Source: Candidatus Aminicenantes bacterium UBA6072 (GTDB taxonomy: Bacteria; Acidobacteriota; Aminicenantia; UBA2199). Taken from it: DNA of 64,000 nt. The first letter of the stretch is position 1; each line of letters starts with the position of its first letter. Location of the stretch: NCBI GenBank assembly GCA_002436105.1, contig DIXU01000017.1, positions 26,015-90,014 of the forward strand, written 5' to 3'. The notes beneath the pieces are model-generated. The model made no database searches. It had not been told where the DNA came from and saw nothing but the letters and a program-made list of their open reading frames with translations. The translations under genes and the position numbers were made by a program. This document shows, one piece after another, positions 9,182-37,895 of this stretch.

Positions 9182-9912
<731 letters not shown>

Positions 9913-16925: not shown

Positions 16926-17149
16926 TCGATTCTATCGCGCCGGATCATGGGTGTCAATGACTTGAATGGATCGAAGCGGGACGCCCCCGGTTGCCGCAGG
17001 ACGGAGGCAGCCAAGGAAGGATCTATCGTTATGCGTCAGGCGAAAGAACAAAAGAATGAAAAAAGCCTTGGGCGAGAGGCAAGGGGTGAGTGGCTAGAGG
17101 AAAGAAAGGCAATCGGTGTAAGGCGCAGGGCGGAGGGAAGATGACATTC

Positions 17150-17600
17150 CAACATAAAAGTTTAAAGTTTAAAGTAAAAAGTTTAAAGTAAGAAAAATTA
17201 CTTCATGGAAAAAAGGCGCTGAAAGGGCTTTTGTTTTAAAAATTGATATTCAGATCTGCATGCTCGATTGGAGAATACCTTTGCACAAAATTCCATTCTT
17301 CACTATCACTACCACTATCACTACCACTAAGACCTGTTAAGACCCATCAGGGGCATCACCACCTATCAGGCCTCCTGCTAACACTATCACTAACACTAAC
17401 ACTCGACTTTGTATTGCCCTGCTGACACTGACACTGTCACTGACACTTGCCTTGGCTTTCGTTTTGAAAATTGGAATTTGGATGTTGTTTGTTATTTGGT
17501 ATTTGGGATTTGGTATTTTAGTCTTCGTATTGCTTCTTCTCTTGCCGTAAACCGTCAACCGTCTACCTTAAACCGATTTCAATTCAAGACGATTGACGTT
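17150..17600. repeat. intergenic repeat island A: degenerate tandem 6-12-mers
   Basis: Tandem arrays read directly: AAAGTTTA x4 (17155-17195), CACTATCACTAC x2.5 (17301-17330), CTAACA/CTATCA (17378-17403), TGACAC/TGTCAC x4 (17423-17447), ATTTGGN array (17461-17520), AACCGTC-like module (17545-17580). Confidence 0.8.
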
Positions 17601-17607
17601 GCCTCGC

Positions 17608-18387
17608 CTATTCCGCTTCGCGGATCGCCTGCTCCAGCCGGGGATTGATCCGGGCTTTCAGCTTCCCGGCCCGCTCGAGCCACTCGCGCGCCTTGTCCAG
17701 TCGCCGGGTGACGAAATAGACGTTGATCAGGTTGTTCAGGCAGCGCTCGTGGGCGGGCTCAATGGCCAGCGCCAGCAGGTACTGGGCCTCGGCCTCGTCC
17801 AGGCGCCGCAGCTTGAAGAGGAGGTTTCCGTGCAGGGCATGAAACTCGGCCGGGATCTCGAAGGGGGAAGCGCCGTCCCCGATGACGTCGGCGGTGGCCC
17901 GGCCGGTCTTCTTGCTTTCATAGGCGCGATCCACGGAAACGCAGGCCAGGCTGCTGGTGCTGCCGCCGATGCTTTGGGCGGCGAGTTCGCGCATGCGTTT
18001 CTCGTCCTCCCTGGACATGGACAGCCAGTTCGTTTTCTGGTTCTTCCACACCTGCTGCATGGCGAGACAGCCATTCTCGGCCCGCTCGATCCAGGCCAGC
18101 GCCGCGGCGATCTCTCCCGCCTGGTTGGCGACCACTGCCTTTCCATAGGCGGCGTTGGGGTGCCCGGGCAGGATCGCCAGGCAACGGTCGAGTTCCTTCC
18201 CTGCCTGCTCCCAGTTCCCGGCCGCCGCCAGCTCGAGCCCGCTGTTCGCCGCCGGCAGGACCGAATGGTACTTGCGCAGCATCTCGATGTCCTGCTCCAG
18301 GCTGGTGTTCTTCTGGGCCGTGAGGGCCAGCGCGAGCAGGAAACACGCGCCGCCGGCGGAAACGAGCCGATGCTTGCCTTTCATCAT
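17608..18387 (-). CDS. TPR-repeat protein, secreted or periplasmic
   Basis: Signal peptide from MMKGKHRLVSAGGACFLLALALTA (alternative ATG at 18450 in the ORF track). TPR-like helical repeats. Confidence 0.6.
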   Translation of the reverse strand: MMKGKHRLVSAGGACFLLALALTAQKNTSLEQDIEMLRKYHSVLPAANSGLELAAAGNWEQAGKELDRCLAILPGHPNAAYGKAVVANQAGEIAAALAWIERAENGCLAMQQVWKNQKTNWLSMSREDEKRMRELAAQSIGGSTSSLACVSVDRAYESKKTGRATADVIGDGASPFEIPAEFHALHGNLLFKLRRLDEAEAQYLLALAIEPAHERCLNNLINVYFVTRRLDKAREWLERAGKLKARINPRLEQAIREAE

Positions 18388-18877
18388 GATCTCACCTGAA
18401 TGAATTATACCATACATTAGGTTCAAGCCAACCGCGGCAGCAGGAATCAAGACGATCCAAAAGTGCCAGAGATAGTGGTAGCGTTAGCGGGAACCAAGGA
18501 AATCGGTTTACGGAGGACGGTTTCCAAAGCAAAGAACAAGCGATTGTTGATGGGTAGAAGAGTAGAAGGGTTGATGGGTCAGCAGCCCTTGATTGGGCCA
18601 TGCCTGAACCCTTCAACTCTTGAACTCTTTAACTCTTCAACTTTTTTGTTTGGGTCAAAGTCCCTGCCCGGGGAAATGTTAGTGACAGTGTCAGCAGGAA
18701 ATGAAAGGAATCAATATGCGGTAGACGGTTGACGGGAAGAGAGGAATTTCACCTTCAACCTTACGCCCTGAACCTTACGCCAAGTTCCGTTCTGCCTCGT
18801 CACGCGTTTCGCGTTACGCGTCACGAAGATTTATTTTTTTTTCCTTCGCGTCACGCGTCACGATTTACCCTGGGGAG
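18388..18877. repeat. repeat island B (core 18525-18712), inverted partner of island D
   Basis: Core is near-identical (about 3 mismatches by eye over ~188 bp) to the reverse complement of 26634-26820. Flanked by GGTTTACGG/GACGGTT modules. CGTCACG heptamer arrays at 18800-18860. Confidence 0.85.
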
Positions 18878-19828
18878 TCAGAACAGCCGCTTCTGCTCCG
18901 GGGCTTCCCTGGCCGCCGCGGCGCGGATGACCGCAACGACCGGCCCGGCGCCGGCGGCGGGGTCCCAGGACACCGCGCCCCTGCGGATCAGCTCCCGGTT
19001 CCCCTCGGCAGGGCAGGAGAAGCAGGCGGGCGCGGCCGCGAACACGGGGATGCCGAGCTGGAAAGCAGCCCGGGCGGCGTTGAAGGAGCCGCTCATGCGC
19101 CGGTCGGCGTCGCGCTCGGGACCGGAGATGACCACGACCAGCGCGTCGGAGAGGGCGGCGACGATCCGGTTGCGCGCCATGGCCTGGAAGGCGGCCCACC
19201 TGGCGTCAGGGGCGAACTGGGAGACCACCAGGATGTTGTCCACCGCCAGATGCTCCTGCAGCTCGGGCCGGGTCTGGAAACGGTGCAGCCCCTCGGCCAA
19301 GACCAGGGTGGTCGTGCCGCCGGCGCGCAGGGCGGCCGCGTGGGCGGCGCTGTCGATCCCGGCGGCATAGCCCGAGACGACATTGGCTCCCCGCGCGGCC
19401 AGTCCGGCGGCCAGGGCAGCGGCGGCCGCCAGGGCATCCTCCCCGGCCTGGCGCTTGCCAACGATCGCCGCACCCGGTTGCTCCAGCAGGGCGACGTTGC
19501 CCCTCACGTACAGCAGCGCCGGCAGGGCGAGCTTTTCCTCCAGGATCCTGAGCCGTCGCGGGAAGTCGGGATGGAGAGGGTGCAGCAGGGTCACCTCCCG
19601 CCCGGGGAAACTCTCTCCGCCATCGCGCTCATGGAGAGTAAGATCGGGAATGGCGAAGCCCGCCCGGCTCACTCCCAGCGCTTCGCCCAGTTTTTCGGGG
19701 TGCTCGACAAGCCAGGAGGCCGCCAGACCCCTGCCTTCCAGGAAGGCGGCGATGCGCCACAGCGCCCTGGGCCCCAGCCCCCTGACGGCGGCCAAAGCGC
19801 GCCAGGCCCGGCCTTCGGGGGTGTTCAT
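18878..19828 (-). CDS. dprA: DNA processing protein DprA (Smf)
   Basis: N-terminal SAM-like region and Rossmann-fold core (GxAxGIDxxAH, VVISG-like motifs). Start MNTPEGRAW overlaps the upstream stop as ATGA. The ORF-track 529-aa version carries an Arg/Pro-rich artefactual extension. Confidence 0.8.
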   Translation of the reverse strand: MNTPEGRAWRALAAVRGLGPRALWRIAAFLEGRGLAASWLVEHPEKLGEALGVSRAGFAIPDLTLHERDGGESFPGREVTLLHPLHPDFPRRLRILEEKLALPALLYVRGNVALLEQPGAAIVGKRQAGEDALAAAAALAAGLAARGANVVSGYAAGIDSAAHAAALRAGGTTTLVLAEGLHRFQTRPELQEHLAVDNILVVSQFAPDARWAAFQAMARNRIVAALSDALVVVISGPERDADRRMSGSFNAARAAFQLGIPVFAAAPACFSCPAEGNRELIRRGAVSWDPAAGAGPVVAVIRAAAAREAPEQKRLF

Positions 19829-20421
19829 GACCTCGACCGCGTGTACGTCGCGGTGAGCACCGACACGCTGCCGGCCCGGCCGGCGAAGAGCAGGACGGCG
19901 GTCGCCGCCTTCAGAGTCTCGCCCGAGCGAAAGAGGTCGTCGAAAAGCAGCAAGTGCATGCCGGCGTAGCGTTGGTCGGCGACGGCAAAGGCTCCGTCCA
20001 GCTCCGAGCGGCGCTCGCGCGTATCCTCCATGTTCTTCAGCGCCGGCGTGGCCTTGGCCTTCAGCAGGTAGTCGTCGGGGGCGGGCAGGGAGAGCCCGGC
20101 GCCGATGGCCACCGCCAGCTCCGCGACGGGCTGGAATGCGCGATCCATGTTCGACGGCGGCACCGGCAGCACGGCGCGGATGCCGGCGAACTCGAGCCGG
20201 TTGCGGACGAAATCCGCCGCGGCGCGGGCGATGGGCTCGAGCTGGCCCCGATCCAGGCGGTATTTCAGGCGGTAGAGCGCCTCGCCGATCTCGCTGCGCT
20301 CGGTCGCGAAACGGTCGTACTTCGAGCGTTCGCCGTCCCCCGAGCGGCTGCTGAGCGTGTGCCGGTCGAGGGCCCAGCCATGGGCCCAGTTGCCGTAGAT
20401 CGGTTTGGGATTCAGTTCCAT
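19825..20421 (-). CDS. ComF/GntX-like phosphoribosyltransferase-domain protein (no zinc finger)
   Basis: PRTase motif LLLFDDLFRSGETLKAA near the C-terminus. Start MELNPKPIYG. Translationally coupled to dprA. The N-terminal Cys4 finger of canonical ComFC is absent. Confidence 0.6.
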   Translation of the reverse strand: MELNPKPIYGNWAHGWALDRHTLSSRSGDGERSKYDRFATERSEIGEALYRLKYRLDRGQLEPIARAAADFVRNRLEFAGIRAVLPVPPSNMDRAFQPVAELAVAIGAGLSLPAPDDYLLKAKATPALKNMEDTRERRSELDGAFAVADQRYAGMHLLLFDDLFRSGETLKAATAVLLFAGRAGSVSVLTATYTRSRS

Positions 20422-20589
20422 CTTGTCGCCAGGGATACATGATAATGGAATCGCTGCCGGGTGACAAGCGAGGGGGAACGGAAAGGAGAAGGCGATCGGT
20501 GCGAGGCGCAGGGCGACCGGTTCAGGGCCAGGGGGAAACATGGTCATGGCGGAAGGATGGAGGCGATTGGAAAAGACAAGCCAGGCCGG

Positions 20590-20898
20590 CTAATCTTCCA
20601 GCTGCACCTTGATTCCGCCGGTGATCGTTGTTACCAGGTTGAACAGGGCCGCGCCGATGAGGCCGGTGACAAAGCCGATCACGGCGTACATGACGGGCAG
20701 GATGATCAGCGCCGCCATGCCCAGGCCGGCACCGAAGGCGGGCAGGGCTTCGCTTCCTTCGATGAAGCGGCCGGCGAAAGCCTGCCAGAGGAAGCCGAAA
20801 AAGGCGATCATGACGCCGACCAGCAGGCCGACCATGGCCAGCAGCACGGTCTGGAACTTGGCGAACGACAGCACGTCGATCTTCTTCAATGTCTTCAT
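20590..20898 (-). CDS. small integral membrane protein (hypothetical, 3 TM)
   Basis: 102 aa. Three hydrophobic helices with Gly-zipper-like segments. No family recognised. Confidence 0.5.
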   Translation of the reverse strand: MKTLKKIDVLSFAKFQTVLLAMVGLLVGVMIAFFGFLWQAFAGRFIEGSEALPAFGAGLGMAALIILPVMYAVIGFVTGLIGAALFNLVTTITGGIKVQLED

Positions 20899-21026
20899 TT
20901 CAATTCCTCCTCGATGAAGTGAAACAAAAGGACCGCGGCGGCGTACGGCGAAGCGGATATCGCGAACGACTTCGGGGAAAATGACTGCGGCCGTTCGCCG
21001 GGTTCATTTCGCTGCGGCATGGAACC

Positions 21027-21743
21027 TCATTTTACAAAGCGATTGAAGGCCCGTTCTGCCCCGATGGTCGTCGCCGGGCCGTGGCCGGGAAGAACCCGGG
21101 TCAGCGGGGGCAAAGGCAGGAGGCGCTTGCGGATACTGTCGATTTCCAGCTGCAGGCTCGCCCGGCGCTGCCGGGGCGTACCGCCGTGGCCCTTGCCGAT
21201 GCCACCGGCAAAAAGGGTATCGCCGGAAAATAGTATGTTTCCCATCCTGAGGCAGACGCTCCCCGGTGAATGCCCGGGCGTGCGGATGATCTCGACCTCC
21301 AGCCCGCCCAGCCGCAGGCGGCCATCCTCGGGATAATCGCTGAAAACGATCGCCGGGCCGGTGGTTTTCGCCGCCAGGGAGTGGTCGGCGCGGTGCAGGT
21401 AAAAAATTGTCTCCAGCCTGGCGGCGATGTAGGCGTTGCCGCCGACATGGTCGAAATGGCCGTGGGTGTTCAGGACGGCCAGCACGCGGAGCCCCTGCTT
21501 CTGGACGAAGTCCAGCAGCCCCGGGGCGGGGGCGCCGGGATCGATGACCAGCGCCTGCCTTGTGCCGGGGTCCCAGGCCAGGTAGCAGTTCATCTCCCAG
21601 CCGCCGTCCAGGGGCAGGGCAAAGGCCTTGACTTGCGGGCCGGCCGCCGCTTCCTCGAAGAACCCGAGAGCGGGGTCGGTTTGGGCCGCGAGGCCCGCTT
21701 CCAGGAAGCCCAGGAGCGGAACGATCCACAATAACCGCATCAT
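21027..21743 (-). CDS. MBL-fold metallo-hydrolase (hydroxyacylglutathione hydrolase-like), secreted
   Basis: HGHFDHVGG metal-binding motif and TPGHSPGS. Signal peptide from MMRLLWIVPLLGFLEA. The ORF-track N-terminal extension is rejected. Confidence 0.75.
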   Translation of the reverse strand: MMRLLWIVPLLGFLEAGLAAQTDPALGFFEEAAAGPQVKAFALPLDGGWEMNCYLAWDPGTRQALVIDPGAPAPGLLDFVQKQGLRVLAVLNTHGHFDHVGGNAYIAARLETIFYLHRADHSLAAKTTGPAIVFSDYPEDGRLRLGGLEVEIIRTPGHSPGSVCLRMGNILFSGDTLFAGGIGKGHGGTPRQRRASLQLEIDSIRKRLLPLPPLTRVLPGHGPATTIGAERAFNRFVK

Positions 21744-22258
21744 GGCAGGTATGTACCACGGCGGCGCCCGGTTGTCAAAAAATGGAATCGACCGGGCACT
21801 TGAAAAACGACCCATGAATCGTGAGGCGATATTTTGGCCGAGCTGTTGTCCGTTTCTGTGCACTTCCGCTTTTGACCTTTCACCATGCTGGCTGCCGTCC
21901 ACCGCCGGCCATGCGCTGCAAGCCAGGCTCGAATCTTCCCGGTCCGTTGCATTTTCATCCCCGTCCTCCTACAATACAGCCATGGACGAAAACAACAAGA
22001 ACTTCTTCTGGGGCGTGCTCCTCGGCGCCGTGGCGGCGGCTTTGGCCGGAGCCGTGGCATTGTCCAGATCGTTCCGCGGGTCCAAGGACGGCGCGAAGAC
22101 ATTCGCGCCTGCCGCAGGGAGAAAAGGCGGGCCGGCTCCGCGCCGTTCCAGGTCGTCAACGGGCCCGGCGAAAAAAAACGTCCGCCGCAAGGCCTAGCCG
22201 GAAAGCACCGCAACGGCCGGGCGGCGGGATAATTTCATTCAAAAAACTCTGACCGTCA

Positions 22259-22288
22259 TTAACCCTTTGGCCGCCGGGGCCGTATTAT
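22259..22288 (+). promoter_or_regulatory. possible promoter of the tricorn-like gene (TTAACC-18-TATTAT)
   Basis: Weak -35, good -10, 43 nt upstream of ATG 22332. Confidence 0.3.
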
Positions 22289-22331
22289 GGACAATGGCTC
22301 CGAAAACCACATCACTTCTTGGAGGACACCC

Positions 22332-25300
22332 ATGAGACCATCCATCAACAAGGCCCTGAGATCATTCTGCGCTGCGTTCCTTTTCGCCTGGATCCTGGGG
22401 GCGCTGCCGCTCCCGGCGCAGGACCAGCCCCTGTGGCTGCGTTACCCGGCGATCTCCCCCGACGGTTCCAGCATTCTCTTCTGCTACCAGGGCGACATCT
22501 ACAAGGTGCCCGCCGCCGGCGGCCAGGCCGTGCCCCTGACCATCGGCGAATCCCACGAGTTCGCCCCGGTCTGGAGCCACGACGGCCGAACCATCGCCTT
22601 CGCCTCCGACCGCCACGGCAGCTTCGACGTCTTCGTCGTTTCCGCCGCCGGCGGCGAAGCCCGGCGCCTGACCTTTCATTCGCGCAACGATATCCCCAGC
22701 GGCTTCAGCGCCGACGACCGGAGCGTCCTTTTCAACCAGGTGCGCAAGGACCTGGCCAGCGACGCCCAGTTCCCGACCCCGGCCCTGCCGGAGCTCTACA
22801 GCGTCCCGGTGCAGGGCGGCGAGATCGCGCTGGTCCTGACCCACGCGGCGATCGCGGCCAAGGTCAGCCCGGACGGCAACAGGATCATCTACCACGACCA
22901 GAAGGGCTACGAAAGCGACTGGCGCAAGCATCACACATCCGCCGTGACCCGCGACATCTGGGTCCATGACCTGAAGGCCAACAAGTATACCCGACTCACC
23001 TCGTTCAATGGCGAGGACCGCAATCCCGTGTTCGCCGCCAACGGCGACGATTTCTACTACCTGAGCGAGCAGAGCGGATCGTTCAACATCCGCAGGAGCT
23101 CGCTGAGCAAGCCGGCGGAATCCCTCGCCCTGACCCACTTCACGAAAAATCCCGTCCGCTTCCTGAGCCGCGCCGATACCGGCCGCCTCTGCTTCGGGTA
23201 TGACGGCGAGATCTACACCCTCGATGCCGGGGCCATGCCGCACCGGGTCGACGTGCGCATCGCGCAGGACGGCCGGCAGGTCCTGGCCAAGCCCGTTCCG
23301 GTCGCCGGCGGCATCACGCAGATGCGCCTTTCGCCCAACGGCAAGGAGATCGCCTACGTCTTCCGCGGCGAGATCTTCGTCGGCAGCGTCGAGGGCGGCG
23401 TCGGCAAGCGCATCACCCATACTCCCGGGCAGGAGCGCAGCGTGAGCTTCAGCCCCGACGGCCGCAGCCTGGTCTACGCGGCCGAGCGCGACAACAACTG
23501 GAACGTTTACACCACCTCGATCGCGCGCAAGGAAGAGCCGTACTTTTACGCCGCCACCCTCCTCAAGGAGGAGCCGCTGGTGGCGACCGCGGCCGAGGAG
23601 TTCCAGCCCGAGTTCTCGCCCGATGGCAAGGAGGTGGCCTACATCGAGGACCGGGTCGTGCTCAGGGTGATCAACCTGGCCTCGCGGCAGACGCGGACGA
23701 TCCTGCCCGCCGAGCACAACTATTCCTATGCCGACGGCGACCAGGACTATGCCTGGAGCCCCGACGGCAAGTGGTTCCTGGTGCAGTTCGGCTACGTCCG
23801 CCTGTTCACCGCCCAGGTCGGGCTGGTCGCCAGCGACGGCAAGGGACAGGTCGTCAACCTGACCCGGAGCGGCTTTGACAGCATCGGCGCCCGCTGGGGC
23901 ATGGACGGCGCCATGATGTTCTACGGCTCCACGCGCGACGGCGCGGCCAATGTTTCCGGCTCGCCGGTGACCTACGACATCTACGGCATGTTCTTTACCC
24001 GCGAGGCCCATGACCGCTTCCTGCTCTCCAAGCCCGATTTCGCCCTGCTGAAGGAACAGGAGGACAAGGTCGCGAAGGACAAGGAGAAAGCCGGGGACAA
24101 AAAGGCGGCGACCGCCCGGGACGAGCCGAAGAAGGACATCGTCATCGAGCTGGCGGGCCTGGACCAGCGCAAGGTCCGGTTCACCGTCCGTTCCGCCGAT
24201 ATCGCCGGCGCCGCGCTCAGCCGGGACGGAGAGAAGCTCTTCTACCTGGCCCGGTTCGAGAAGGGCTACGACCTGTGGCAGGCCGAGCTGCGTGCGAAAG
24301 AGACTAAGCTTTTGACCAAGCTCAACGCCGAGCGGGCGGCCATGGAACTTAGCGCCGACGGCAAGGCCCTGTTCGTGCTGGCCGAAGGCAGGGTCAGCAA
24401 GATCGACCCCGAGAGCGGCAAGGCCGAGCCCGTCGCCATCGGCAATGAAATGTTCCTCGATGCCGGCGCCGAAAAGGCCTACATGTTCGATCACATGTGG
24501 CGGCAGATCCGGCAGAAGTTCCTGGTCGCCGACCTCTACGGCGCCGACTGGGATTTCTACCATGCGACCTATCGCAAGTTCCTCCCCTTCATCAACAACA
24601 ACTACGACTATGCCGAGATGGTCAGCGAGATGCTCGGAGAGCTGAACGCCTCACACACCGGATGCTACTACTCCCCGCCGCGCGCGCCCGAGGCCGATGC
24701 CACCGCCTCCCTGGGATTTTTCCGCGACTACGTCCACGCGAGCCCGGGCATCCGCATCGCGGAGATCCTGCCCGGCGGCCCGCTCGACAAGGCCGCCCTG
24801 CGCATCCGCGCCGGCCACGTGATCGAGAAGATCGACGGCGCGGCCCTGGACGGCAGCTTTGACCACGACCGGCTGTTGAACCGCAAGGCCGGCCAGCTCA
24901 CCCTGCTCTCGGTGTTCGATCCGGCCGCGAAGCAGCGCTGGGAAGAGACGGTCAAGCCCATTGCCCTGAACGAGGAGGCGCCGCTGGTGTACCGCCGCTG
25001 GGTGCGCGCCCGCCGCGCCGAAGTCGAGCGTCTCTCCGGCGGCCGCATCGGCTACGTCCACGTGCGCGGCATGAACGACGCCAGCATGCGCACTGTGATC
25101 GAGGAGGTGCTCGGCCTGAGCATCGACAAGGAAGCACTGATCGTCGACACGCGCTTCAACGGCGGCGGCAACCTCCATGACCAGCTGGCCGACTTCCTCG
25201 CCGGCAGGAAGGTCTTCGACATCGTCCCCCGCGGCCAGCTCGTCGGCTACGAACCCTACGACAAGTGGATCAAGCCCTCCATCGTCGTGATGGGAGAGGG

Positions 25301-25595: not shown

Positions 25596-25750
25596 AGACC
25601 TAAGTGACGAGTGACAAGTGACGAGGAACAGCCTGGTTCGAGTTCTTGCGGCTTTCTTCCCTTGTCCCTTGTTGCTTGGCACTTGTCACCAGGATTAGTC
25701 CCGATCAGGCGCTGGGTTGCCAATCGTTCTGCCGCCGGCTAGAATGAGCC
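25596..25750. repeat. repeat island C: AAGTGAC heptamer array with partial inverted partner
   Basis: taAGTGACgAGTGACaAGTGACgag at 25601-25625. Inverted cttGTCACc / ttgtcccttgttgc downstream. Confidence 0.7.
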
Positions 25751-26551
25751 ATGGAAAGAAAGCCCCTGGACGGCGGCATGCTATTCTTTGATGCCCGGGA
25801 CAATGAGGCGGCCGAATGGATGGGCGCCGCCGCCGAGGAGTCGCAGCGCCTGGCCCGCGAACTCTGGGGACTGGCGCCGCGGGGCGAGTTCCAGGTACAC
25901 GCCATGACCTCGTGGGCCGGATTTCTCTTCGCCGCCGCTCCCGGGGCTTGGCGCCCTTGGCTGCTCCTCACCCTGCCCCTGTGGGTCTCCCGGGTCACAA
26001 AGACCTGGAGAATGGCCGGAGGCTGGACGCAGCGCTTCGGCAGCAGGGTGGCGGTGGGTGTCAAGCCGCCGCGCCTGCTTCTGGCCGCCGACCGCTCCCT
26101 GGGCAAGCGGCTTTTCCTGTCCGAGCCCGACGTGCAGGGCAAGGTGCGGCAGATCACCTGGCACGAGACGGTCCATGCCTGCTCGCTCCATCACAAGCTC
26201 CCTGCCTGGCTGAATGAGGGGCTGGCCATGTTTGCCGTCGACCGGCTCGCAGGCATGCCGACCGTCCGTCCCGAGACCCTGTCCTGGATGACAACGGCCA
26301 ATGCCTCCGGCGGGCGCCGCTATCCCGCCCACTCCCATGACCGGGCCGGGACCTTTCTGCGTCTCTATGCCCAGGGATATTGGCGGGTACGTTTCCTGGA
26401 AGAGACGCGCCCGGGGCTGCTAAAGGAGCTCCTGTCGGCGAAATACGATTCAGACGAGTGGCTGCGGTCATTCGCCAAGGCCTGCGGGCTTGGTGATGGC
26501 GCCGGCTGGGCGGAAGTGGACCTGTCTGTGGCCAGGCACTTCGAGCAATAG
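25751..26551 (+). CDS. peptidase-MA-like zinc metalloprotease (HExxH…NEGLA)
   Basis: HETVH followed by LNEGLAMF, matching the gluzincin-like Peptidase_MA_2 motif pair. Confidence 0.5.
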   Translation: MERKPLDGGMLFFDARDNEAAEWMGAAAEESQRLARELWGLAPRGEFQVHAMTSWAGFLFAAAPGAWRPWLLLTLPLWVSRVTKTWRMAGGWTQRFGSRVAVGVKPPRLLLAADRSLGKRLFLSEPDVQGKVRQITWHETVHACSLHHKLPAWLNEGLAMFAVDRLAGMPTVRPETLSWMTTANASGGRRYPAHSHDRAGTFLRLYAQGYWRVRFLEETRPGLLKELLSAKYDSDEWLRSFAKACGLGDGAGWAEVDLSVARHFEQ

Positions 26552-26892
26552 CACCCGGTGTGCGTCGCGCGGCTTAAGGCATTAGGTGGAATTCCTTTCT
26601 TCCCTTAAACCGTAAGCCTTCTACCTTAAACCGATTCCTTTCATTTCCTACTGACACTGTCACTAACATTTCCCCGGGCAGGGACTTTGACCCAAACAAA
26701 AAAGTTGAAGAGTTAAAGAGTTCAAGAGTTGAAGGGTTCAGGCAGGGCCCAATCAAGGGCTGCTAACCCATCAACCCTTCTACTCTTCTACCCATCAACA
26801 ATCGCTTGTTCTTTGCTTTGAAAACCGTCGACCGTCAACCGATTTCTAGTACAGCCAATGACGCTGATACCGTTACTGGCACTTACTGCACG
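26552..26892. repeat. repeat island D (core 26634-26820), inverted partner of island B
   Basis: The reverse complement matches island B core almost base-for-base. Flanked on both sides by direct copies of the CTTAAACCG…AACCGATT(C/T)C module. Confidence 0.85.
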
Positions 26893-27975: not shown

Positions 27976-28885
27976 CCGCGTGGGCCTGCAGCGCGGCGGA
28001 GATGTCCAGGGCCAGCTCGAGCGCCGCCCGGCCGTCGCGGCCGCTGACGACGAAATCGCCCTCGCCGGCGACGGTGCGCCGGAAATTCTGCCACAGGCTG
28101 GCCAGAGGCTCGATGTCCTCGATGCGCGGGTATTCCTCGACGATCCGCCCCTCGCGCAGCTGGAACATCTTCACGCTGCGCTCCTTGTAATCCACGGAGA
28201 GATACAGGTTTTTCTGGAACAGGCGCAGCTTGCGCGTCTTTTCCTGGGAAACGCGGCTGGCGGTCACGTTGGCCACCAGGCCGGAATGGAACTCCAGGCG
28301 CACGTTGGCGATGTCGATCCGGCGCGAGATGATCGGCACGCCGCTGGCGCGGATCTCCCGCACTCCGGAGCGGTCCCACTGCAGGATGATGTCCAGGTCG
28401 TGGATCATCAGGTCCATGATGACGTCAATATCCAGCGAGCGCGGCGAAAAGGAGCCCAGGCGCTGCACCTCGATGAACAGGGGGCTGGCGACCAGCCGCC
28501 CGGCATACTCCACCGCCGGGTTGAAGCGCTCCAGGTGGCCCACGGCCAGCACCAGCCGGTTCGCCGCGGCCAGGGCGATCAGCTCATCGGCTTCGGCCAG
28601 CGTGCGGCTGATCGGCTTCTCGACCATGACGTGCTTGCCGTTCTCCAGGAAGAGGCGGCAAAGGGCGAAATGCTCCAGGGTCGGCGCCGCCACGATGACG
28701 GCATCCACAAGCGGCAGGGCCTGGCAGGGTTCCTGCAACAGGGGAATGCCGTAGGACATGGCGTTCTTCTCCAGGTTCGCCGCCAGGACGTCGACGGCGC
28801 AGGTCAGCTGCAATCCGGGAGATTTCGCCAGCACGCGCAAGTGATTGGCGCCCATGGCGCCGGTCCCGATTACGCCGATTCTCAT
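27968..28885 (-). CDS. Gfo/Idh/MocA-family NAD-dependent oxidoreductase (GnnA-like candidate)
   Basis: MRIGVIGTGAMGANH Rossmann N-terminus, EKP motif and the GFO_IDH_MocA C-terminal domain. Start overlaps the lpxI stop (ATGA). The 526-aa ORF-track form is a GC-rich extension. Confidence 0.8.
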   Translation of the reverse strand: MRIGVIGTGAMGANHLRVLAKSPGLQLTCAVDVLAANLEKNAMSYGIPLLQEPCQALPLVDAVIVAAPTLEHFALCRLFLENGKHVMVEKPISRTLAEADELIALAAANRLVLAVGHLERFNPAVEYAGRLVASPLFIEVQRLGSFSPRSLDIDVIMDLMIHDLDIILQWDRSGVREIRASGVPIISRRIDIANVRLEFHSGLVANVTASRVSQEKTRKLRLFQKNLYLSVDYKERSVKMFQLREGRIVEEYPRIEDIEPLASLWQNFRRTVAGEGDFVVSGRDGRAALELALDISAALQAHADA

Positions 28886-29691
28886 GTTCTCCCCATCAGG
28901 ATGATCTTGTTTCGCCGCGCCCGCTCGGCCAGCGAGGCGGGATCGAGCAGAAGCGTCCTGCCTGCTTCCAGCACGAACGCCGCCGCTCGGGCCGCTGCCA
29001 GCACGTCCAGGGTGCGCGGGCCCGCCACCGGCAGGTCGAAGCGCATGTCCTGGCCCGGTCGGCTGACCTTGGCCACGACCAGCCCGGGGCCGGCGATGGC
29101 CGCGGCCCGCTCGATGGCGCGGTCGGTTCCCTCCATGGCCTCCACGGCCACGACGGCCCTGTCCTTGACGCACACCGTCTGGCCGATATCCAGGCTGGCG
29201 AGGCCCCAGGCCTTCTGCCAGGCGAAATCGATGTCGCCGCGCAGGGCCCTGGTCAGCCGCAGGCGCGGGGTGTAGTTCCTGGCCGCCACCAGGTGCTCCT
29301 TGAGAAAGAAGGAAGAGTCGATGATCTCGATGCCTTCGCCGGCCAGGAAGTCGGCCAGCGCGGCCAGCAGCGACGTGGTGGTGCGGTCGCGGACGCCGGC
29401 CAGAAAACGCAGGAACTTGGCGTCGGCCGCCATGGCCGAGAAGACCGACGCGTGAGGGACGCGGCCGATCATCAGCGCCCGCTTCACGCCGCGGCTCCTG
29501 AAAAAGCGGATGAGCCCACCCAGGCGGCCGAGAGGGAACTCGGCCCATTCGTCGGCTTCAGCGGCCAGGTCGGGGGCGGCGGCGCCGCGGACGGAGGCGA
29601 CCACGGTATGCCAGCCCAGGCGCCGCGCCGCCCGGCAGGTCAGCAGCGGCAGGGGCGGCTCGCCGGCGATGATGCCGATCGTCTCAGCCAT
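28882..29691 (-). CDS. lpxI: UDP-2,3-diacylglucosamine hydrolase LpxI-like (DUF1009)
   Basis: 269 aa with an LpxI-like N-terminal domain. Position directly after lpxA. 8-nt overlap with the lpxA stop. Confidence 0.6.
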   Translation of the reverse strand: MAETIGIIAGEPPLPLLTCRAARRLGWHTVVASVRGAAAPDLAAEADEWAEFPLGRLGGLIRFFRSRGVKRALMIGRVPHASVFSAMAADAKFLRFLAGVRDRTTTSLLAALADFLAGEGIEIIDSSFFLKEHLVAARNYTPRLRLTRALRGDIDFAWQKAWGLASLDIGQTVCVKDRAVVAVEAMEGTDRAIERAAAIAGPGLVVAKVSRPGQDMRFDLPVAGPRTLDVLAAARAAAFVLEAGRTLLLDPASLAERARRNKIILMGRT

Positions 29692-30490
29692 CGGAGCGGA
29701 AATTCTTCAGGATGCCTCGCTTGGTTTTGCTGATGAATTCGGTGATCACCCGGGCTTCCTCGCTGTTGGCGTGCTGCTCGCCGATCCGGTGGACGGCCTG
29801 GGTGGTGTTCAGGTCGGAGTGGTAGAGGATGCGGTAGATGTCCTTGACGTTCTCGATGAAATCGCGGCTGAGCCCGTTGCGCATCATGCCGATGGCATTG
29901 GGACCGTACAGGCTGAACGATTCGCGGCTCTGGGCCACCTTGGCGAACGGCAGGACATCCTGGCAGACCACGCTGTAGCCGCCGATGTAGGCGTTGCGGC
30001 CGATGCGCACGAACTGGTGCACGGCGCAGAAGGCGCTGAGCACGACATAGTCGCCGATCTCGACATGGCCGGCCAGGGTGGCGCCGTTGCTGAGGATGAC
30101 GTGGCTGCCGAGCTGGCAGTCGTGGGCGACATGAGCGTAAGCCATGAGATAGTTGTCGTCGCCCAGGCGCGTGTGGCCCCCTCCCTTCGGCGTGCCGCGG
30201 TTGATGGTGGTGAACTCGCGGATGATGTTGCGGTCGCCGATGTGCACGAAGGTCTCCTCGCCCTTGAAGGTGATGTCCTGGGGGTCGGTCCCCAGCGAGG
30301 AAAAGGGGAAGATATGGCATTCGCGCCCGATGACGGTGTTGCGGTCGATGGTGGCATGGTGCTTGACCAGCGTGCGGTCGCCGATGCGCACGCCGGGCCC
30401 GATGACCGAATAGGCGTCGACCTGGACTTCCCGGCCGAGCTCGGCCTTGGCGCTGATGACGGCGGTGGGATGGATCAGCTTCTGGCTCAC
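29684..30490 (-). CDS. lpxA: UDP-N-acetylglucosamine O-acyltransferase LpxA
   Basis: 268 aa. Hexapeptide-repeat left-handed beta-helix. N-terminus [13 protein letters not shown]…. Confidence 0.85.
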   Translation of the reverse strand: MSQKLIHPTAVISAKAELGREVQVDAYSVIGPGVRIGDRTLVKHHATIDRNTVIGRECHIFPFSSLGTDPQDITFKGEETFVHIGDRNIIREFTTINRGTPKGGGHTRLGDDNYLMAYAHVAHDCQLGSHVILSNGATLAGHVEIGDYVVLSAFCAVHQFVRIGRNAYIGGYSVVCQDVLPFAKVAQSRESFSLYGPNAIGMMRNGLSRDFIENVKDIYRILYHSDLNTTQAVHRIGEQHANSEEARVITEFISKTKRGILKNFRSDG

Positions 30491-30921
30491 TGGGTCACCA
30501 TGCAGCTCATGGTCGCTTCGACCGCCAGCTGACCGTCCACCGAGGCCTTGCCCTCGATGACGGCGAACTTGCCCCGGTCGCGGACCACCAGCACCTCGAG
30601 GTCCAGCCGGTCTCCCGGCACGACGGGCCTCTTGAAGCGGGCTTTCTCGATGCCGGCAAAATAGGCATACACCTTCTGGCCGATGAAGCGCTGCATCAAC
30701 AGCACCGCCCCCAGCTGGGCCATGGCCTCGATGATCAGCACACCCGGCATGACCGGGTTGCCGGGAAAATGGCCCTGGAAAAAATCCTCGTTGCCGGTGA
30801 CGTTCTTGTAGCCCTGGATGGTCTTGCTCCCGTCGCAGGCGGTCACGCGGTCGACCAGCAGGAAGGGATAGCGATGGGGCAGGATCCGCTTGATGCCCTC
30901 GATATCCAGGGGCAGGTTCAT
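30487..30921 (-). CDS. fabZ: 3-hydroxyacyl-ACP dehydratase FabZ
   Basis: 144 aa. Hotdog-fold motif [19 protein letters not shown]. Confidence 0.9.
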
Positions 30922-31436
30922 TTCTTGGCGGCGGCGGTGGACTGGGCGTCGTAGGACTTGACCACCTTCTCGGTAAGGTCGATGGCGGGATCGAAGAAGG
31001 TAACGCCGGCCGTGTTCAGGTCGAGGACCAGGGAGAAGCCGTTCTCCTGGGCGACCTTCTCGATGATCGGCATCAGGTCTTTCTGGATCGCCTCGAATTC
31101 CTTCTGCTGGGCGGCCATGCTTTCCTTCTGGGCGTCCTCGGCGAAGCGCTTGATCTCGGTGCGCTTGTTGGCCAGGTCCTGGGTCTTGCGGTCGCGGGCC
31201 TCGGCGTTCAGCGCCGGGGAGAGGACTTCCTTCTCCAGGGCCTCGATCGCCTTCTGCAGCGACTCGTACTTCTTCTGCTTGGCGATGGTCAGCGCCTGCA
31301 GGCGGCCGATGGCTTCCTTGCCCTTGACCGAGTTCTGCAGGACGACCTGGGGATTGATGATGCCGATCTTGAATTCGGCGAAGGCGAACGCGCTCAGGGC
31401 CACCAGGGCCGCGATCAACAACAGGTGTTTTTTCAT
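30918..31436 (-). CDS. skp: periplasmic chaperone Skp (OmpH)
   Basis: 172 aa. Signal peptide. Lys/Glu/Gln-rich coiled-coil body. Sits between bamA and fabZ. Confidence 0.8.
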   Translation of the reverse strand: MKKHLLLIAALVALSAFAFAEFKIGIINPQVVLQNSVKGKEAIGRLQALTIAKQKKYESLQKAIEALEKEVLSPALNAEARDRKTQDLANKRTEIKRFAEDAQKESMAAQQKEFEAIQKDLMPIIEKVAQENGFSLVLDLNTAGVTFFDPAIDLTEKVVKSYDAQSTAAAKK

Positions 31437-31457
31437 GTTCTTCTCCTTATTGAAAAC

Positions 31458-33773
31458 TTAATAGAATGACGGACCGACGGCGAACTTGAAGACGAAGTGC
31501 GAATCGCCGACATCCAGCAGGCGCGGGTTGTAGGCGAAGATCAGGCGGAAGGGGACGTTGAGCATGGGCACGAAGACCTTCAGCTCCAGGCCGGTCGAGG
31601 TGTAGACGTCCTTCAGCCGGATCGGCGTACCGGAGTCGTAGGAGTTGCCCATGTCGTAGAAAAAGACGAAGGAGAACTGCTGGGTCAGGGGGATGGCGTA
31701 TTCCAGGTTGAAGAGGAACGACTTGGTCCCGCCCAGGACATTGCCGCTCTTGTCGCGCGGCCCGATGGTGTAGATGTCAAAGCCGCGCAGCGAGCGCTCG
31801 CCGCCCAGGAAATACTTCTCGTAGAAGGGGACCCGGCGGTTGGCGAACGGCGCCAGCCCCTCGTAGGCCAGGTGCAGGCCCAGCACGTGCCGCTTCCACA
31901 GGGGCTGGAAGCGGACGAACTCCAGCTTCAGCTTGTGCAGGTAGATGTCCCCGCCCAGGAAGCCGCCGGAATAGCGGTAGGTGGCCAGGACCTTGCTTCC
32001 CTGGGAGGGGAAGATCGGCGAGTCCACGGTGGAATAGTACAGGGTGGGCGAAAGGGCCGAGACGCGCCGCTTGCCCGCGCTGTAATAGTACATGTAATAG
32101 GAGCTGATGTACTGGTAGCTCTCGTTGACGTCGCTGATCTCGATGTCCTCCATGCTGTACACCAGCTGGCTGCCCCAGTAGGTCCAGAAGCGGGCCGAGC
32201 TGGAGAGGTTGAAGCCCTGCCCCTTGCGCGTGTACATGTAGGGATACTCGTAAGTGGTCTTGAAGACGTCGATGCCGAAATTGGCCGGCAGGTTGAACAG
32301 GTAGGGCTCGGTGAAGGCGAACTGGTAGTTCTTGGCGCGCGTGCCCTGCTGCAGGTTGAGGGTGAAGGCCTCGCCCATGCCCAGGAAGTTCTGGGTGGAA
32401 TAGCCGGCGGCGATGAACCAGCCCTCGTAGCCGCTGTAGCCCACGTTGAAGTTGATCATCTGCCGGTTCATCTCCTTGACCTCGGCGATGACGTTGATCT
32501 TCTGGGGGTCCTGGGGGTCGGCCTTGATCTCGGGCATCTTCTCCACGGTAACCAGGCCCAGCTGCTTCATGCGCTTGATCGAGTCCTCCAGGGCGTTGAT
32601 GTTCAGGCGCTTGCCCTCGCGCAGGAACCACTCGCGGCGGATGACATGGTCCTTGGTGAAGGTGTTGCCGACGAACTCGAGCTTGCCCAGGTAGACGACC
32701 TCGTTCTCCTGGATGTGGATGGTCAGGTCGGCGACGCGCCGTTCCGGGTCCAGGTTCTCGCTGGGCACGACCTGGGCGTAGAAGTAGCCGATGCCGCCGT
32801 AGAACTTCTGCATGTTCTCGATGAACTTGTTGCGCTTCTTGATGTTGTACACCTGGCCCTTCTTGAAGCCGACCAGGCTCTTGAGGAAGTCGGTGCGGAT
32901 GACCTTGTTGCCTTCGACGGCGATCTCGCCCACGCGGTAGCGCGGGCCGAGCTCCACCGGGATGCTGAGCCGCAGCATGTCCTGCCGGTGCCCGAGGATC
33001 GTTTTCCGCTCCATGGTGGCGAACTCCGGCGTGCCGACCTTGGCCTCCAGGTAGCCTTTCTGCTGCAGGCGCAGGCGGACCTCCTCGAGGTCTTCCTCGA
33101 TCTTCTCGCGGTTGTAGACGTCCTTGCCGGCGACGGCCGAGAGGATGGCGTGCACCTGGTTGCTCTTCAGGCCGCGGCGCAGGAAAGCCGGCGAGACCGA
33201 GCCGGGGGTGAGGCCGGGGAAAACCACCTTGGCGATGCGCGTCTTGTAGCCCGCGTCGGCGCGCACGGTCAGGGCGATCTGCCCGTTCTCCTCCTTCTTC
33301 TCGTCGATGGTCACGTCGGCCTGGTTGTAGCCCTTCTCCAGGAGCATGTCGGTGACGAGCTTCTTCACCTTGCGCACCTTGGACGGGCTGTAGTAAGAGA
33401 AGGGCTGCAGCAGGATGTTGCTGCCCTGCAGCTTCTCGTTGATGTCGCTCTCCTTGACCTTCTTGCTCAGCTTGTAGGTGACCGAGGAGATCAGCGGGTT
33501 CTCGGCCAGCACCAGGCGCACGATCTTGCCGGCGGCGCCGTTCTCCTCCTCGATGCGGATGTTCTCGAAGAAGCCGGTGGCCCAGAGCGACTGGAAATCC
33601 TCCTTCAGCTTCTGCGGGTCATAGACGCCGCCCTCGCGTGATTTCATGTAGAACTGGATGGTTTCGCGCGAGACCTTGCGATTGCCTTCGACCTGGATCT
33701 TTTCGATGACATCGGCGCACAGCCATTGGGCGCCGAGCAGCATCAGGACCAGCCACGGCATTTTTTTCAGCAT
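31458..33773 (-). CDS. bamA: outer membrane protein assembly factor BamA
   Basis: 771 aa. Signal peptide, five POTRA-like repeats, C-terminal 16-strand barrel ending …GPSFY/F. Confidence 0.9.
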   Translation of the reverse strand: MLKKMPWLVLMLLGAQWLCADVIEKIQVEGNRKVSRETIQFYMKSREGGVYDPQKLKEDFQSLWATGFFENIRIEEENGAAGKIVRLVLAENPLISSVTYKLSKKVKESDINEKLQGSNILLQPFSYYSPSKVRKVKKLVTDMLLEKGYNQADVTIDEKKEENGQIALTVRADAGYKTRIAKVVFPGLTPGSVSPAFLRRGLKSNQVHAILSAVAGKDVYNREKIEEDLEEVRLRLQQKGYLEAKVGTPEFATMERKTILGHRQDMLRLSIPVELGPRYRVGEIAVEGNKVIRTDFLKSLVGFKKGQVYNIKKRNKFIENMQKFYGGIGYFYAQVVPSENLDPERRVADLTIHIQENEVVYLGKLEFVGNTFTKDHVIRREWFLREGKRLNINALEDSIKRMKQLGLVTVEKMPEIKADPQDPQKINVIAEVKEMNRQMINFNVGYSGYEGWFIAAGYSTQNFLGMGEAFTLNLQQGTRAKNYQFAFTEPYLFNLPANFGIDVFKTTYEYPYMYTRKGQGFNLSSSARFWTYWGSQLVYSMEDIEISDVNESYQYISSYYMYYYSAGKRRVSALSPTLYYSTVDSPIFPSQGSKVLATYRYSGGFLGGDIYLHKLKLEFVRFQPLWKRHVLGLHLAYEGLAPFANRRVPFYEKYFLGGERSLRGFDIYTIGPRDKSGNVLGGTKSFLFNLEYAIPLTQQFSFVFFYDMGNSYDSGTPIRLKDVYTSTGLELKVFVPMLNVPFRLIFAYNPRLLDVGDSHFVFKFAVGPSFY

Positions 33774-33795
33774 GAAAACCTCGCAAAATTCGAGT

Positions 33796-33824
33796 TGAAT
33801 GGTATTTTATAGCACAAAACGCCA
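33796..33824 (-). promoter_or_regulatory. sigma70-like promoter of bamA (TTGTAA-17-TGcTATAAA, read on minus strand)
   Basis: -35/-10 hexamers with 17-nt spacer and TG-extended -10, ~35 nt upstream of the bamA ATG. Shares TTGTGCTATAAAA with the divergent fmdB promoter. Confidence 0.4.
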
Positions 33825-33891
33825 TAAATTACAATTCTCATATAAAGGATAAGACGTACGGGATGCATGAGAAAGTTTCAGCGTTTTTTTA

Positions 33892-33920
33892 TTGACAGCC
33901 GGAATCGATTGTGCTATAAA
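33892..33920 (+). promoter_or_regulatory. sigma70-like promoter of the fmdB-like gene (TTGACA-17-TGcTATAAA)
   Basis: Consensus -35 TTGACA (33892-33897), 17-nt spacer, extended -10 TGCTATAAA (ending 33920), ~30 nt before ATG 33951 with GGAGGAAG RBS. Confidence 0.5.
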
Positions 33921-33950
33921 AAAAATATCCATCACGCGGAGGAAGTGGCC

Positions 33951-34196
33951 ATGCCGATCTACGAATACAAATGCTCGAAATGCGGCAGAGTTTTCGAGTG
34001 TTTGCAGTCCGTTTCGGCCTCGCCGCGCCGCAAGTGCATCCACTGCCGGGGCCAGGCCGAAAAGATCGTTTCCCAGAGCTCGTTCCAGTTCAAGGGCTCG
34101 GGCTGGTACATCACCGATTACAAGAAGAAGGGCGCCCAGAGCGCCGCCCCGGCCAAGCCCGCGGAAAAAACCGATAAAAATGCCAAAGCCAGTTAG
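33951..34196 (+). CDS. FmdB-family zinc-ribbon protein
   Basis: MPIYEYKCSKCG…CIHCRG: two CxxC pairs on the typical FmdB N-terminus. The ORF-track start at 33867 lies upstream of the promoter, so 33951 is preferred. Confidence 0.7.
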   Translation: MPIYEYKCSKCGRVFECLQSVSASPRRKCIHCRGQAEKIVSQSSFQFKGSGWYITDYKKKGAQSAAPAKPAEKTDKNAKAS

Positions 34197-34656
34197 CCTT
34201 TCCATCTCTCCCCCCTTAATATAACCATAACCCCCACCCTACAAAAACACCCCCCCCGCTACATGGGGGGGGCCCGCCTTTTGTCATTGCCAGCAGATGG
34301 AATCGGTTTACGGTAGACGGTTTACGGTAGACGGGAAGAGAAGAGGCAATAGGAAGACTAAAATCCCAAATCACAAATTCCAAATCCCAAATAAATTCCA
34401 AACTCCAAATTCCAATTTCCAAAACGAAAACCAAGGCAAGTGTCAGTGACGGTGTCAGTAGGAGCCTTGGAATACGTTCTTGCTCTTTCGTTTCAACGTT
34501 TTAACGCTGCAACACTTCAACGATTTATGTTCCATTGACCCTTCAATTCATCACCGAGTTCGGGATCTTCGTTTGGGTCATTTGGTAATTGAAATTTGGT
34601 GCTTGTTTGGGATTTGGAATTTGGTGCTTGGAATTTAATTCTTCACATGTCACGCG
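34197..34656. repeat. repeat island E: composite with internal long inverted repeat
   Basis: Left part (34298-34462) is the reverse complement of island A 17421-17585 at roughly 80-85% by eye. Right part carries ATTTGGN arrays that are the inverse of the left AAATNCCA arrays. CGTCACG heptamers at 34650-34680. Confidence 0.8.
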
Positions 34657-35160
34657 TCACGCGTTACGCGTCACGACAGATCCTCCCTTTGCTGCCGCTG
34701 ACCGCAAACAGCCGGGCTCGTCTCCTGTCTTTTCCAGGATAATGGTCACCGGCCCGTCATTGACCGAGCGCACCTGCATCATGGCGCCGAATTCCCCTGC
34801 CGCGACCGGGACGACGTCCCGCAGCAGCGAGTTGAAGCGCTCATAGAGCTCCCGGGCGCGGCCGGGCTCCTCGGCATGGGTGAAGTCTGGACGCCTCCCC
34901 TTCCTGTTGCGCGCTGCCAGGGTGAACTGCGAGACCGAGAGTACGCCGCCTCGCACCTGCCGGACATCGAGGTTCATCCTCCCCGCTTCGTCGGCGAAGA
35001 CGCGCAGGTGCAGGACCTTGTCGGCCATGAAGGCGATCTCCCCCTCGCCGTCGCCCTTTTCAATGCCCACCAGCAGGAGCAATCCCCGGCCGATGCGGGC
35101 GATCTCGCGCCCCACGACGTCGACGCCGGCCTCCGCGACCCGCTGGATCACTACGCGCAT
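34657..35160 (-). CDS. dtd: D-aminoacyl-tRNA deacylase Dtd
   Basis: MRVVIQRV… start, SQFTLAA motif and MQVxxVNDGPVT. The C-terminus runs ~20 aa into the repeat island. Confidence 0.8.
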   Translation of the reverse strand: MRVVIQRVAEAGVDVVGREIARIGRGLLLLVGIEKGDGEGEIAFMADKVLHLRVFADEAGRMNLDVRQVRGGVLSVSQFTLAARNRKGRRPDFTHAEEPGRARELYERFNSLLRDVVPVAAGEFGAMMQVRSVNDGPVTIILEKTGDEPGCLRSAAAKGGSVVTRNA

Positions 35161-35164
35161 GGCT

Positions 35165-36510: not shown

Positions 36511-36519
36511 GGCCGGGGC

Positions 36520-37888: not shown

Positions 37889-37895
37889 AAACTAG

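Follow-up and report, generated by a model that had tools for sequence, protein, structure and literature searches.

The repetitive extragenic palindromic (REP) sequences and bacterial interspersed mosaic elements (BIME) of enterobacteria, together with the REPINs of Pseudomonas, are extragenic multi-copy repeats (PMC3116915) that lie in both orientations, favour convergent gene pairs and the 3' ends of genes, occur mostly as inverted doublets able to form hairpins in ssDNA or mRNA, with singlets in the minority, gather in mosaic clusters, and combine a conserved family sequence with variable site occupancy. These properties are shared by a repeat family that we describe here from a 64,000-nucleotide (nt) stretch of Candidatus Aminicenantes bacterium UBA6072 (contig DIXU01000017.1, positions 26,015 to 90,014; the window, meaning the whole stretch analysed), a chromosome segment of ~65% GC whose intergenic gaps hold islands of 42–49% GC. 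Two of these islands, A and E, form an inverted pair that encloses a second inverted pair, B and D, an arrangement to which a first-pass annotation had drawn attention. The reading we favour, with moderate confidence, is that A and E are opposite copies of a dispersed Aminicenantes-type noncoding repeat family behaving like REP, BIME and REPIN elements, and that the concentric geometry of A/E and B/D is a by-product and not an inversion device.

The family departs from these known elements in size and construction. Its repeated unit, here called the arm, is ~130 nt long compared with ~25–35 nt for REP, and does not fit the definition of REP as an imperfect palindrome of ~20–35 nt; unlike REP, BIME and REPIN elements, it consists of degenerate heptamer arrays, and is chained with more types of module, and no fixed termini were found for it. 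The short tandemly repeated repetitive (STRR) sequences of cyanobacteria provide a second likeness, since they too have 7-nt tandem units, are intergenic, form inverted arrays capable of stem-loops, and vary in length between close relatives. However, STRR1–3 are homogeneous arrays of a single unit, whereas the arrays here are degenerate and sit in ordered multi-module elements with conserved connectors. Heptamer repeats have also been reported as TAACTGA in Beggiatoaceae, cyanobacteria and Bacteroidetes (PMC4679880) and as GGGAATC in Xanthomonas and GGGGAYT in Nostoc (PMC4692102). The TAACTGA repeats lie just upstream of start codons (PMC4679880), whereas the arrays here favour 3' ends. The present heptamer units are distinct from those published for cyanobacteria, Xanthomonas and Beggiatoa, number in the dozens, and, unlike the other heptamer repeats, belong to a high-GC Aminicenantes lineage. 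A full-text literature search retrieved no paper mentioning Aminicenantes, and therefore no description of such repeats in that group was found; the family, at once REP/BIME/REPIN-like and STRR-like, is apparently undescribed.

The neisserial intergenic mosaic elements (NIME) with dRS3, the Correia elements, and the pneumococcal BOX elements are likewise intergenic mosaics assembled from a module library, with variable internal repeats and hairpins, and are associated with rearrangement sites. The family here resembles them in this respect but has no sequence relationship to them; its internal repeats measure 6–8 nt as opposed to units of 45–150 nt, and no link to a phage or integrase was seen. 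An apparently undescribed family that takes up a large share of the DNA between genes in an uncultured lineage, and at which short-read assemblies break, carries the puzzle of over-represented 7-nt intergenic tandem units into another phylum-level group, with a richer grammar on which it can be tested.

Inverted match between islands A and E

Aligned with MAFFT, the reverse complement of A and the forward strand of E are colinear over ~175 nt at ~87% mean identity, with a single 7-nt gap. The alignment has a sharp start at GAATCGGTTT and ends at GTGTCAGT, with no similarity beyond. A repeat search of the window returned two overlapping pairs of inverted arms, 17464–17581/34298–34415 (118 nt, 84%) and 17411–17518/34368–34475 (108 nt, 81%), which are one diagonal in two registers because the 7-nt indel offsets them. 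In a self dot-plot with a word size of 11, 25 reverse-strand hits fell in the bins joining 17400 with 34200 and 34400. The local alignment score of A against E was 205, and the maxima after shuffling were 29 (mononucleotides) and 49 (7-mer blocks); therefore, the likeness does not reflect low-complexity composition only. Nonrepetitive connectors, such as GAAGAGAAGAGGCAATAGGAAGACTAAAAT and CCAAGGCAAGTGTCAGTGAC, are part of the shared sequence, and the latter is also its longest exact run, at 20 nt. The inverted match that the first-pass annotation had claimed thus exists, with a reverse-strand diagonal that extends beyond low-complexity runs of less than 20 bp, and the strings quoted for the two islands were found in the sequence exactly or nearly so.

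The orientations that had been assigned, A(+) B(+) D(-) E(-), were wrong. Terminal modules common to the four islands, namely a start module, AATCGGTTKAMGGNNGACGGTT (matched five times in the window against 0 expected), and an end module, AGTGACRGTGTCAGYAGG (six times against 0.02), give A(-) B(+) D(-) E(+). A/E and B/D remain inverted pairs after this correction, and the strands of the shared modules make A/D and B/E direct pairs.

Islands A and D were recovered in independent assemblies of the same strain, at 99.94–99.97% identity in JGI 3300001567 contigs and at 100% in Logan contigs. Short-read contigs typically stop within islands, as expected because the repeats are multi-copy. Compared with the same-strain JGI 3300001567 contigs, the window differs solely by single-base indels in genes (positions 10214, 15939 and 15955, and the tricorn gene of L092). 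The window carries the MFS and tricorn genes whole, whereas the JGI contigs break them up; indel errors made in assembly, on one side or the other, are the likely reason.

A dispersed family of modular arms

The 131-nt arm is laid out as an (ACGGTNN)3–5 array, the connector GGGAAGAGAAGAGGCAATAGGAAGACTTA, an (AAATNCC)7–9 array and CCAAAACGAAAGC; defined from its copies, it reads as ACGGTNN units, GGGAAGAGAAGAAGCAATAGGAAGACTTA, AAATNCC units and AATTTCCAAAACGAAGGC. Island A is a complete solo arm with this order of heptamer arrays, connector and CCAAAACGAAAGC; its facing partner is absent, and it is 95% identical to its orthologue in a UBA2190-like lineage, from which two 7-nt indels separate it. 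Island E is a hairpin doublet (inverted repeat 34353–34415/34582–34644) in which a loop module lies between a complete arm and a partial partner, and the partner runs into a GTCACGC heptamer array abutting the dtd stop codon. The 150-nt loop module, which holds the string tgacacttgccttgg used in the first-pass annotation, is missing from the orthologous loops of UBA2199 and UBA2190 and present at nine other loci.

Over 471 kb of DNA from related Aminicenantes, a sample of ~5% of each metagenome-assembled genome (MAG), an nhmmer profile built from 37 arms matched 143 times; its matches in the window are four (E, A, the partial partner of E, and the end of D). With these dispersed copies, the proposal of a modular element family present in both orientations is borne out. 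Among 119 substantial arms, 92 (77%) face an inverted partner within 350 nt and so form hairpin doublets. The 16 complete doublets listed are imperfect palindromes of 229–544 nt, mostly 270–300 nt; a single arm by itself is not palindromic. Doublets open with AATCGG and close with CCGATT, and solo arms have just one such end. Arms are chained with further array modules (GTGTCAG, GTCACGC, AGACGTT, AAAGTTT, GGGTAGAA/AACTCTTC and others) into low-GC mosaics, in which the tandem units are 6–8 nt long and at least 40 heptamer unit families occur. Nonorthologous homologues were found for every other island piece of the window, namely the B/D octamer-hairpin core, the hairpins of AGACGTT and AGTGACN units, and the GTCACGC and CACTAT/CTAACA arrays. 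All pieces recur elsewhere, and the islands are therefore concatenations from a module library.

A scan of 185,579 species genomes placed the 22-nt start module at 79 loci, ~57 of them in Candidatus Aminicenantes MAGs or in high-GC MAGs with these elements. There were 26 matches in UBA2190 and 22 in UBA2199, and the copies inspected had an identical module order. By label, the MAGs with these elements include two "Clostridia" and one "Acidobacteria." The "uncultured Clostridia bacterium" MAGs (L015, L017, L030, L033, L044, L055, L062, L065 and L070) have 62–69% GC and typical arms, L065 being 83% identical to window positions 34529–36852, and are probably mislabelled Aminicenantes relatives. 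The ACGGTTN unit also occurs, as simple (TTGACGG)n ... (CCGTCAA)n intergenic hairpins, in distant bacteria, many of low GC and some filamentous: L018, L025, L056, L057 and L075 (Desulfobacterales HSG2), L014 and L061 (Bacteroidetes), L028, L034 and L031 (cyanobacteria, with Microcoleus among the hosts), and L019 and L022. This spread across phyla echoes the reported distribution of TAACTGA. In addition, soil and sediment metagenome contigs of 55–59% GC (L084–L088) carry similar mosaics of GAACTCTT-type octamer and CGAACGT or CCTTACA heptamer arrays. The heptamer-mosaic style reaches past the UBA2190/UBA2199 group.

The family is intergenic, modular, and enriched at gene 3' ends, and it changes by 7-nt length steps and by replacement of whole modules. 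With genes called by a codon log-odds caller and arrays by Tandem Repeats Finder (TRF), whose output period 7 dominates, 350 of 365 period-7 arrays were intergenic, although only 13% of the DNA is. Of the convergent intergenic regions 74% had arrays, compared with 19% of the co-directional and 27% of the divergent ones, and the arrays of the window come after a stop codon and ahead of the next promoter-like site. Most islands thus sit at gene 3' ends.

Against this background, the concentric layout loses the unusual character that had been ascribed to it. In the family alignment, A and E are 81% identical, the median of all pairs is 78%, and 36% of pairs, mostly cross-genome, are closer. Neither A nor E stands out in a family that numbers dozens of copies or more in each genome, and nested inverted pairs would be expected in ~1 of 4 cases among four randomly oriented neighbours. 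The concentric pairs would then be an accident of a dense repeat family, and no special inversion switch is predicted.

It is very unlikely that A/E and B/D are instead dedicated repeats bounding segments that are inverted by homologous or site-specific recombination. Both pairs are truly inverted, B and D have an identical run of 94 nt, their longest, and inversions between lineages are seen in this neighbourhood, all of which would fit such a role. However, the longest identical run of A and E is 20 nt, and overall the two are about as alike as family members usually are. Given the substrate requirements of RecA, a 20-nt identity is close to the lower limit for efficient homologous recombination, if not beneath it; B/D would be the better substrate. 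The potential for two inversions foreseen by the first-pass annotation is thus weak for A/E and better for B/D, and neither an A–E nor a B–D flip was seen in the three related lineages: colinearity extends across B and E in UBA2199, and across A, D and E in both UBA2190 and the UBA2190-like contigs. Such inversions as did occur have their endpoints elsewhere, and no inverted repeats lie there. Furthermore, the 17 kb from A to E is housekeeping DNA, with genes for a TPR protein, an MBL hydrolase, a beta-lactamase-fold protein and tricorn protease as well as dprA, lpxI, lpxA, fabZ, skp and bamA, and no recombinase or transposase domain was found by Pfam in the 20 proteins scanned between and around A and E. 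A composite transposon does not fit either, A and E being 175-nt noncoding arrays without an encoded transposase; the small open reading frames (ORFs) in them are spurious short frames that run through the arrays.

Alternatively, the arms could be miniature inverted-repeat transposable elements (MITEs) or REPIN-like elements moved by a transposase located elsewhere, for example a REP-associated tyrosine transposase (RAYT) or IS200-type Y1 enzyme, with solo arms such as A as decayed halves. We regard this as unlikely, although several observations favour it: copies are many, scattered and in both orientations, doublets predominate, as they do for REPINs (PMC3116915), the AATCGG 5' boundary is sharp in many copies, and presence or absence varies at orthologous sites. 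On the other hand, target-site duplications were absent around the 16 complete doublets, and doublet palindromy often extends past the supposed termini into the next module, so that the ends do not appear to be fixed. The scanned window genes contained no transposase domain, and 27 genes with an array on either side look ordinary over their first 60 residues, with no obvious shared transposase. The start module had no hits in IMG/VR viral contigs, and A/E-type and B-type elements had no match in plasmid and phage collections, on which grounds an origin from the mobile genome was rejected.

Conservation, turnover and possible function

Island evolution is bimodal, with some islands replaced outright and others far better conserved than genes. 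Across genes, the window is 88–95% identical to UBA2199 and 86–93% identical to UBA2190. The remainder of the A island beyond its arm and adjoining module is 98.8% identical to the UBA2190-like L089, with flanking genes at 79–93% and their third positions at 72–88% (P ~1e-16). This stretch contains GTGTTAG, TAGTGGT/GATAGTG and AAACTTT arrays and a C-rich tract, modules that recur at other loci. The B core (18499–18706) is 98.6–99% identical to that of UBA2199, with flanking genes at 90–91% and third positions at 82–83%. Both are the most conserved stretches of their loci, and ordinary intergenic DNA nearby (20422–20589) is just 49–70% conserved. Among the replaced islands, the arrays between B and dprA are 53% identical to their UBA2199 orthologue, those past the tricorn protease gene 16% identical to the UBA2190-like lineage, and the AGACGTT/ACGTCTA island 40% identical to UBA2199; D stands at 44%, UBA2190 having an A/E-type arm where the window has a B-type core. 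The A island is also dispensable, in that the MFS and TPR genes of UBA2199 lie on separate contigs and neither has an adjoining island. Indels of 7 nt separate A from E, B from D, and A and B each from their orthologues.

Concerted evolution was rejected as the cause of this conservation. B is 98.6% identical to its orthologue and 94–95% identical to D, and A is 95% identical to its orthologue and 81–87% identical to E; orthologues are thus closer than paralogues, and within-genome homogenisation fails to explain the pattern. Purifying selection, recognition by a trans-acting factor, and inter-lineage exchange restricted to the islands are possible causes. Rapid module turnover, coincidence with synteny breaks, and substitution rates far below those of synonymous sites together leave neutral junk without explanatory power.

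The closest relative of arm E is the arm at the D locus of UBA2190 (94%), and its own orthologues are 87–88% identical, which suggests that E may have undergone conversion. Exchange of modules is further indicated because the core of the D locus differs between lineages (B type versus E type) and the E loop is specific to the window. We propose a working model in which arrays would change in length by replication slippage, copies would trade modules through recombination or gene conversion, and either selection or a trans-acting protein that recognises the sequence would maintain it. Hairpin islands, transcribed from either strand, may give 3'-end stem-loops that act in termination, insulation or mRNA protection, and doublets would do so independently of orientation. 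Canonical intrinsic terminators were not enriched (13 found, 17 expected).

Folding of the islands is strong in places. The region 34290–34690, spanning E, has a predicted fold of -131 kcal/mol on the minus strand (z -6.7) and -116 kcal/mol on the plus strand (z -3.1), and the B core, an octamer-array hairpin of GGGTAGAA and AACTCTTC followed by T6, folds at -74 kcal/mol on the plus strand and -58 kcal/mol as its reverse complement. The better folding of E on the transcribed strand, the strand difference and terminal U-run of the B/D core, and the high conservation could be read as signs of strand-specific structured small RNAs or cis-regulatory RNA elements. We hold that reading to be highly improbable. 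No Rfam family matched: across the whole window there were no hits at gathering scores and, even at E<=1, only chance matches to miRNA hairpins. A tRNA scan of the window found none. Among 64 co-directional regions, the sense strand folded more stably in 31 and less stably in 33 (Wilcoxon p=0.61), and solo arms lie three to four with respect to transcription, which also gives no support to rut sites or another transcript-level polarity. The best-conserved part is unstructured, and diverged homologues are too few for covariation, a 21-nt word of the B core having matched only six metagenome loci, none orthologous.

The 400-nt array region of the A island bears on a different possibility. Its RNA structure (17005–17415, z +1.1 and +1.4) is weaker than that of shuffled sequence, and since the region is conserved but unstructured, selection for hairpins alone is not the explanation. 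The heptamer arrays might then be binding platforms for an abundant protein that reads ~7 nt per unit, which on DNA could be a nucleoid-associated or termination factor and on RNA a protein of the Csp/S1/CsrA type, with selection on sequence and not on hairpins. Near-total conservation of this unstructured region, the strict 7-nt period with indels of whole units, and comparable proposals for the Beggiatoaceae TAACTGA repeats (PMC4679880) are consistent with such platforms. So is the polarity of the CpG-containing edge heptamers (GTGACGC, CGTGATT, ATGCGTT, AAGTGAC and others): in 38 of 39 cases, over 57 Aminicenantes-like loci and the window, the GTGAC-type strand reads outward from the closest gene. 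These edge arrays often begin a few bases past the stop codon. However, a single reader protein is difficult to square with at least 40 heptamer families, no protein emerged as a candidate, and UBA2199 does without an island beside its TPR or MFS gene; we consider the idea quite doubtful.

A broader formulation, to which we give a low but appreciable probability, is that the islands are neither junk nor purely selfish DNA but undescribed, sequence-constrained cis-elements of Aminicenantia, some of them better conserved than the essential genes next to them, read by a dedicated heptamer-recognising factor in termination, insulation or nucleoid organisation, and that the heptamer arrays found in cyanobacteria, Beggiatoaceae, Desulfobacterales and Bacteroidetes may work on a common principle.

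Several results weigh against the REP/BIME/REPIN-like reading that we prefer. The missing target-site duplications and the apparent lack of fixed ends described above are among them, as are the lack of a folding preference for the transcribed strand and the sub-shuffled structure of the conserved A region. No RAYT or other mobilising gene was found among the Pfam-scanned window genes, and none was obvious by eye among the 27 array-flanked genes; no genome-wide search was made. The high conservation could stem from recent inter-lineage recombination limited to the islands, and a terminator or stabiliser role would follow by analogy only. Furthermore, the loci behind the statistics were chosen because they bear repeats, which biases the densities upward.

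Other features and gene order around the islands

The features of the window discussed here are collected in Table 1. The terminator hairpin beside island E, in which a C8 run pairs with a G8 run ahead of a T-run, is kept in three lineages and is the sole convincing terminator-like site in 16.8–35 kb.

Table 1. Positions of repeat islands, their modules and a neighbouring terminator in the window
Feature	Position	Strand	Remarks
Extent of the A/E match, island A	17411–17585	-	Read on the minus strand
Extent of the A/E match, island E	34298–34475		
Remainder of the A island, from TPR stop to MFS promoter	17011..17410	-	Most conserved stretch of the locus
GTGTCAG/GTGACA hexamer-heptamer module CCAAGGCAAGTGTCAGTGACAGTGTCAGTGTCAGCAGG adjoining arm A	17411..17455	-	Also in E, B and D
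Island A, complete solo 131-nt arm	17456..17578	-	nhmmer profile positions 1–130, E=4.8e-30
Island B (inner pair)	18499..18735	+	A/E-like start and end modules, different core
CCTTACG and GTCACGC heptamer arrays, from B to the dprA stop codon	18736..18877	+	Homologous modules at 20 other sites
AGTGACN and TCCCTTG heptamer arrays directly past the tricorn-protease stop	25596..25750	+	
Island D (inner pair), B paralogue between convergent genes	26610..26846	-	94–95% identical to B
G/C-rich hairpin and T-run terminator	34249..34273	-	Directly past island E in the sense of the flanking genes
Island E, complete arm, left arm of hairpin doublet	34301..34429	+	nhmmer positions 1–129, E=2.3e-37
Loop module within the E hairpin	34431..34580	+	GTGTCAG array, small hairpin, CTTCAACG octamer array
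Partial partner arm of E, ATTTGGN arrays	34567..34672	-	nhmmer positions 16–129, E=7e-13
AGACGTT/ACGTCTA heptamer-array hairpin island	37883..38080	unassigned	
(AAGTGAC)n ... (GTCACTC)n hairpin between convergent genes	55159..55270	unassigned	

Gene order differs between lineages next to island B. The UBA2190-like lineage has TPR(-); MBL(+) sulfatase(+); DUF3566(-); X(+) dprA(+); small gene(+) tricorn(+), and the window has TPR(-); B; dprA(-) X(-); DUF3566(-); MBL(-); small gene(+). The difference amounts to an outer inversion and an inner re-inversion of the DUF3566 gene, which has kept its orientation (window 18878–21950; L089 10001–15342; L008 7000–7223). The sulfatase gene is found only in the UBA2190-like lineage. 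Repeats lie at just one junction in each gene arrangement, and a repeat-mediated origin of the dprA/MBL inversions was rejected, there being no inverted repeats at the breakpoints in either arrangement.

In UBA2199, synteny breaks exactly at island A (window 16917–17607 versus L058 1–2304 and L072 6600–7457): the 3' end of the TPR gene adjoins a permease gene and the start of the MFS gene adjoins a gene that looks GGDEF-like by eye, on different contigs and across short repeat-free spacers. A further difference lies at 25751–26551, where the window has a 266-amino-acid (aa) ORF with no Pfam match, a weak coding score and heptamer arrays on both sides. This ORF is missing from UBA2190 and the UBA2190-like contigs, in which only repeat arrays part the tricorn and beta-lactamase-fold genes. 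The islands coincide with several structural differences, and we do not claim that they cause them.

At the left end of the window (2–12540) are five paralogous MacB_PCD/FtsX-type ABC permease genes of ~800 aa, of which four stand in tandem; an ABC ATPase gene lies in their midst, and the permease paralogues are the source of most direct repeats in the window.

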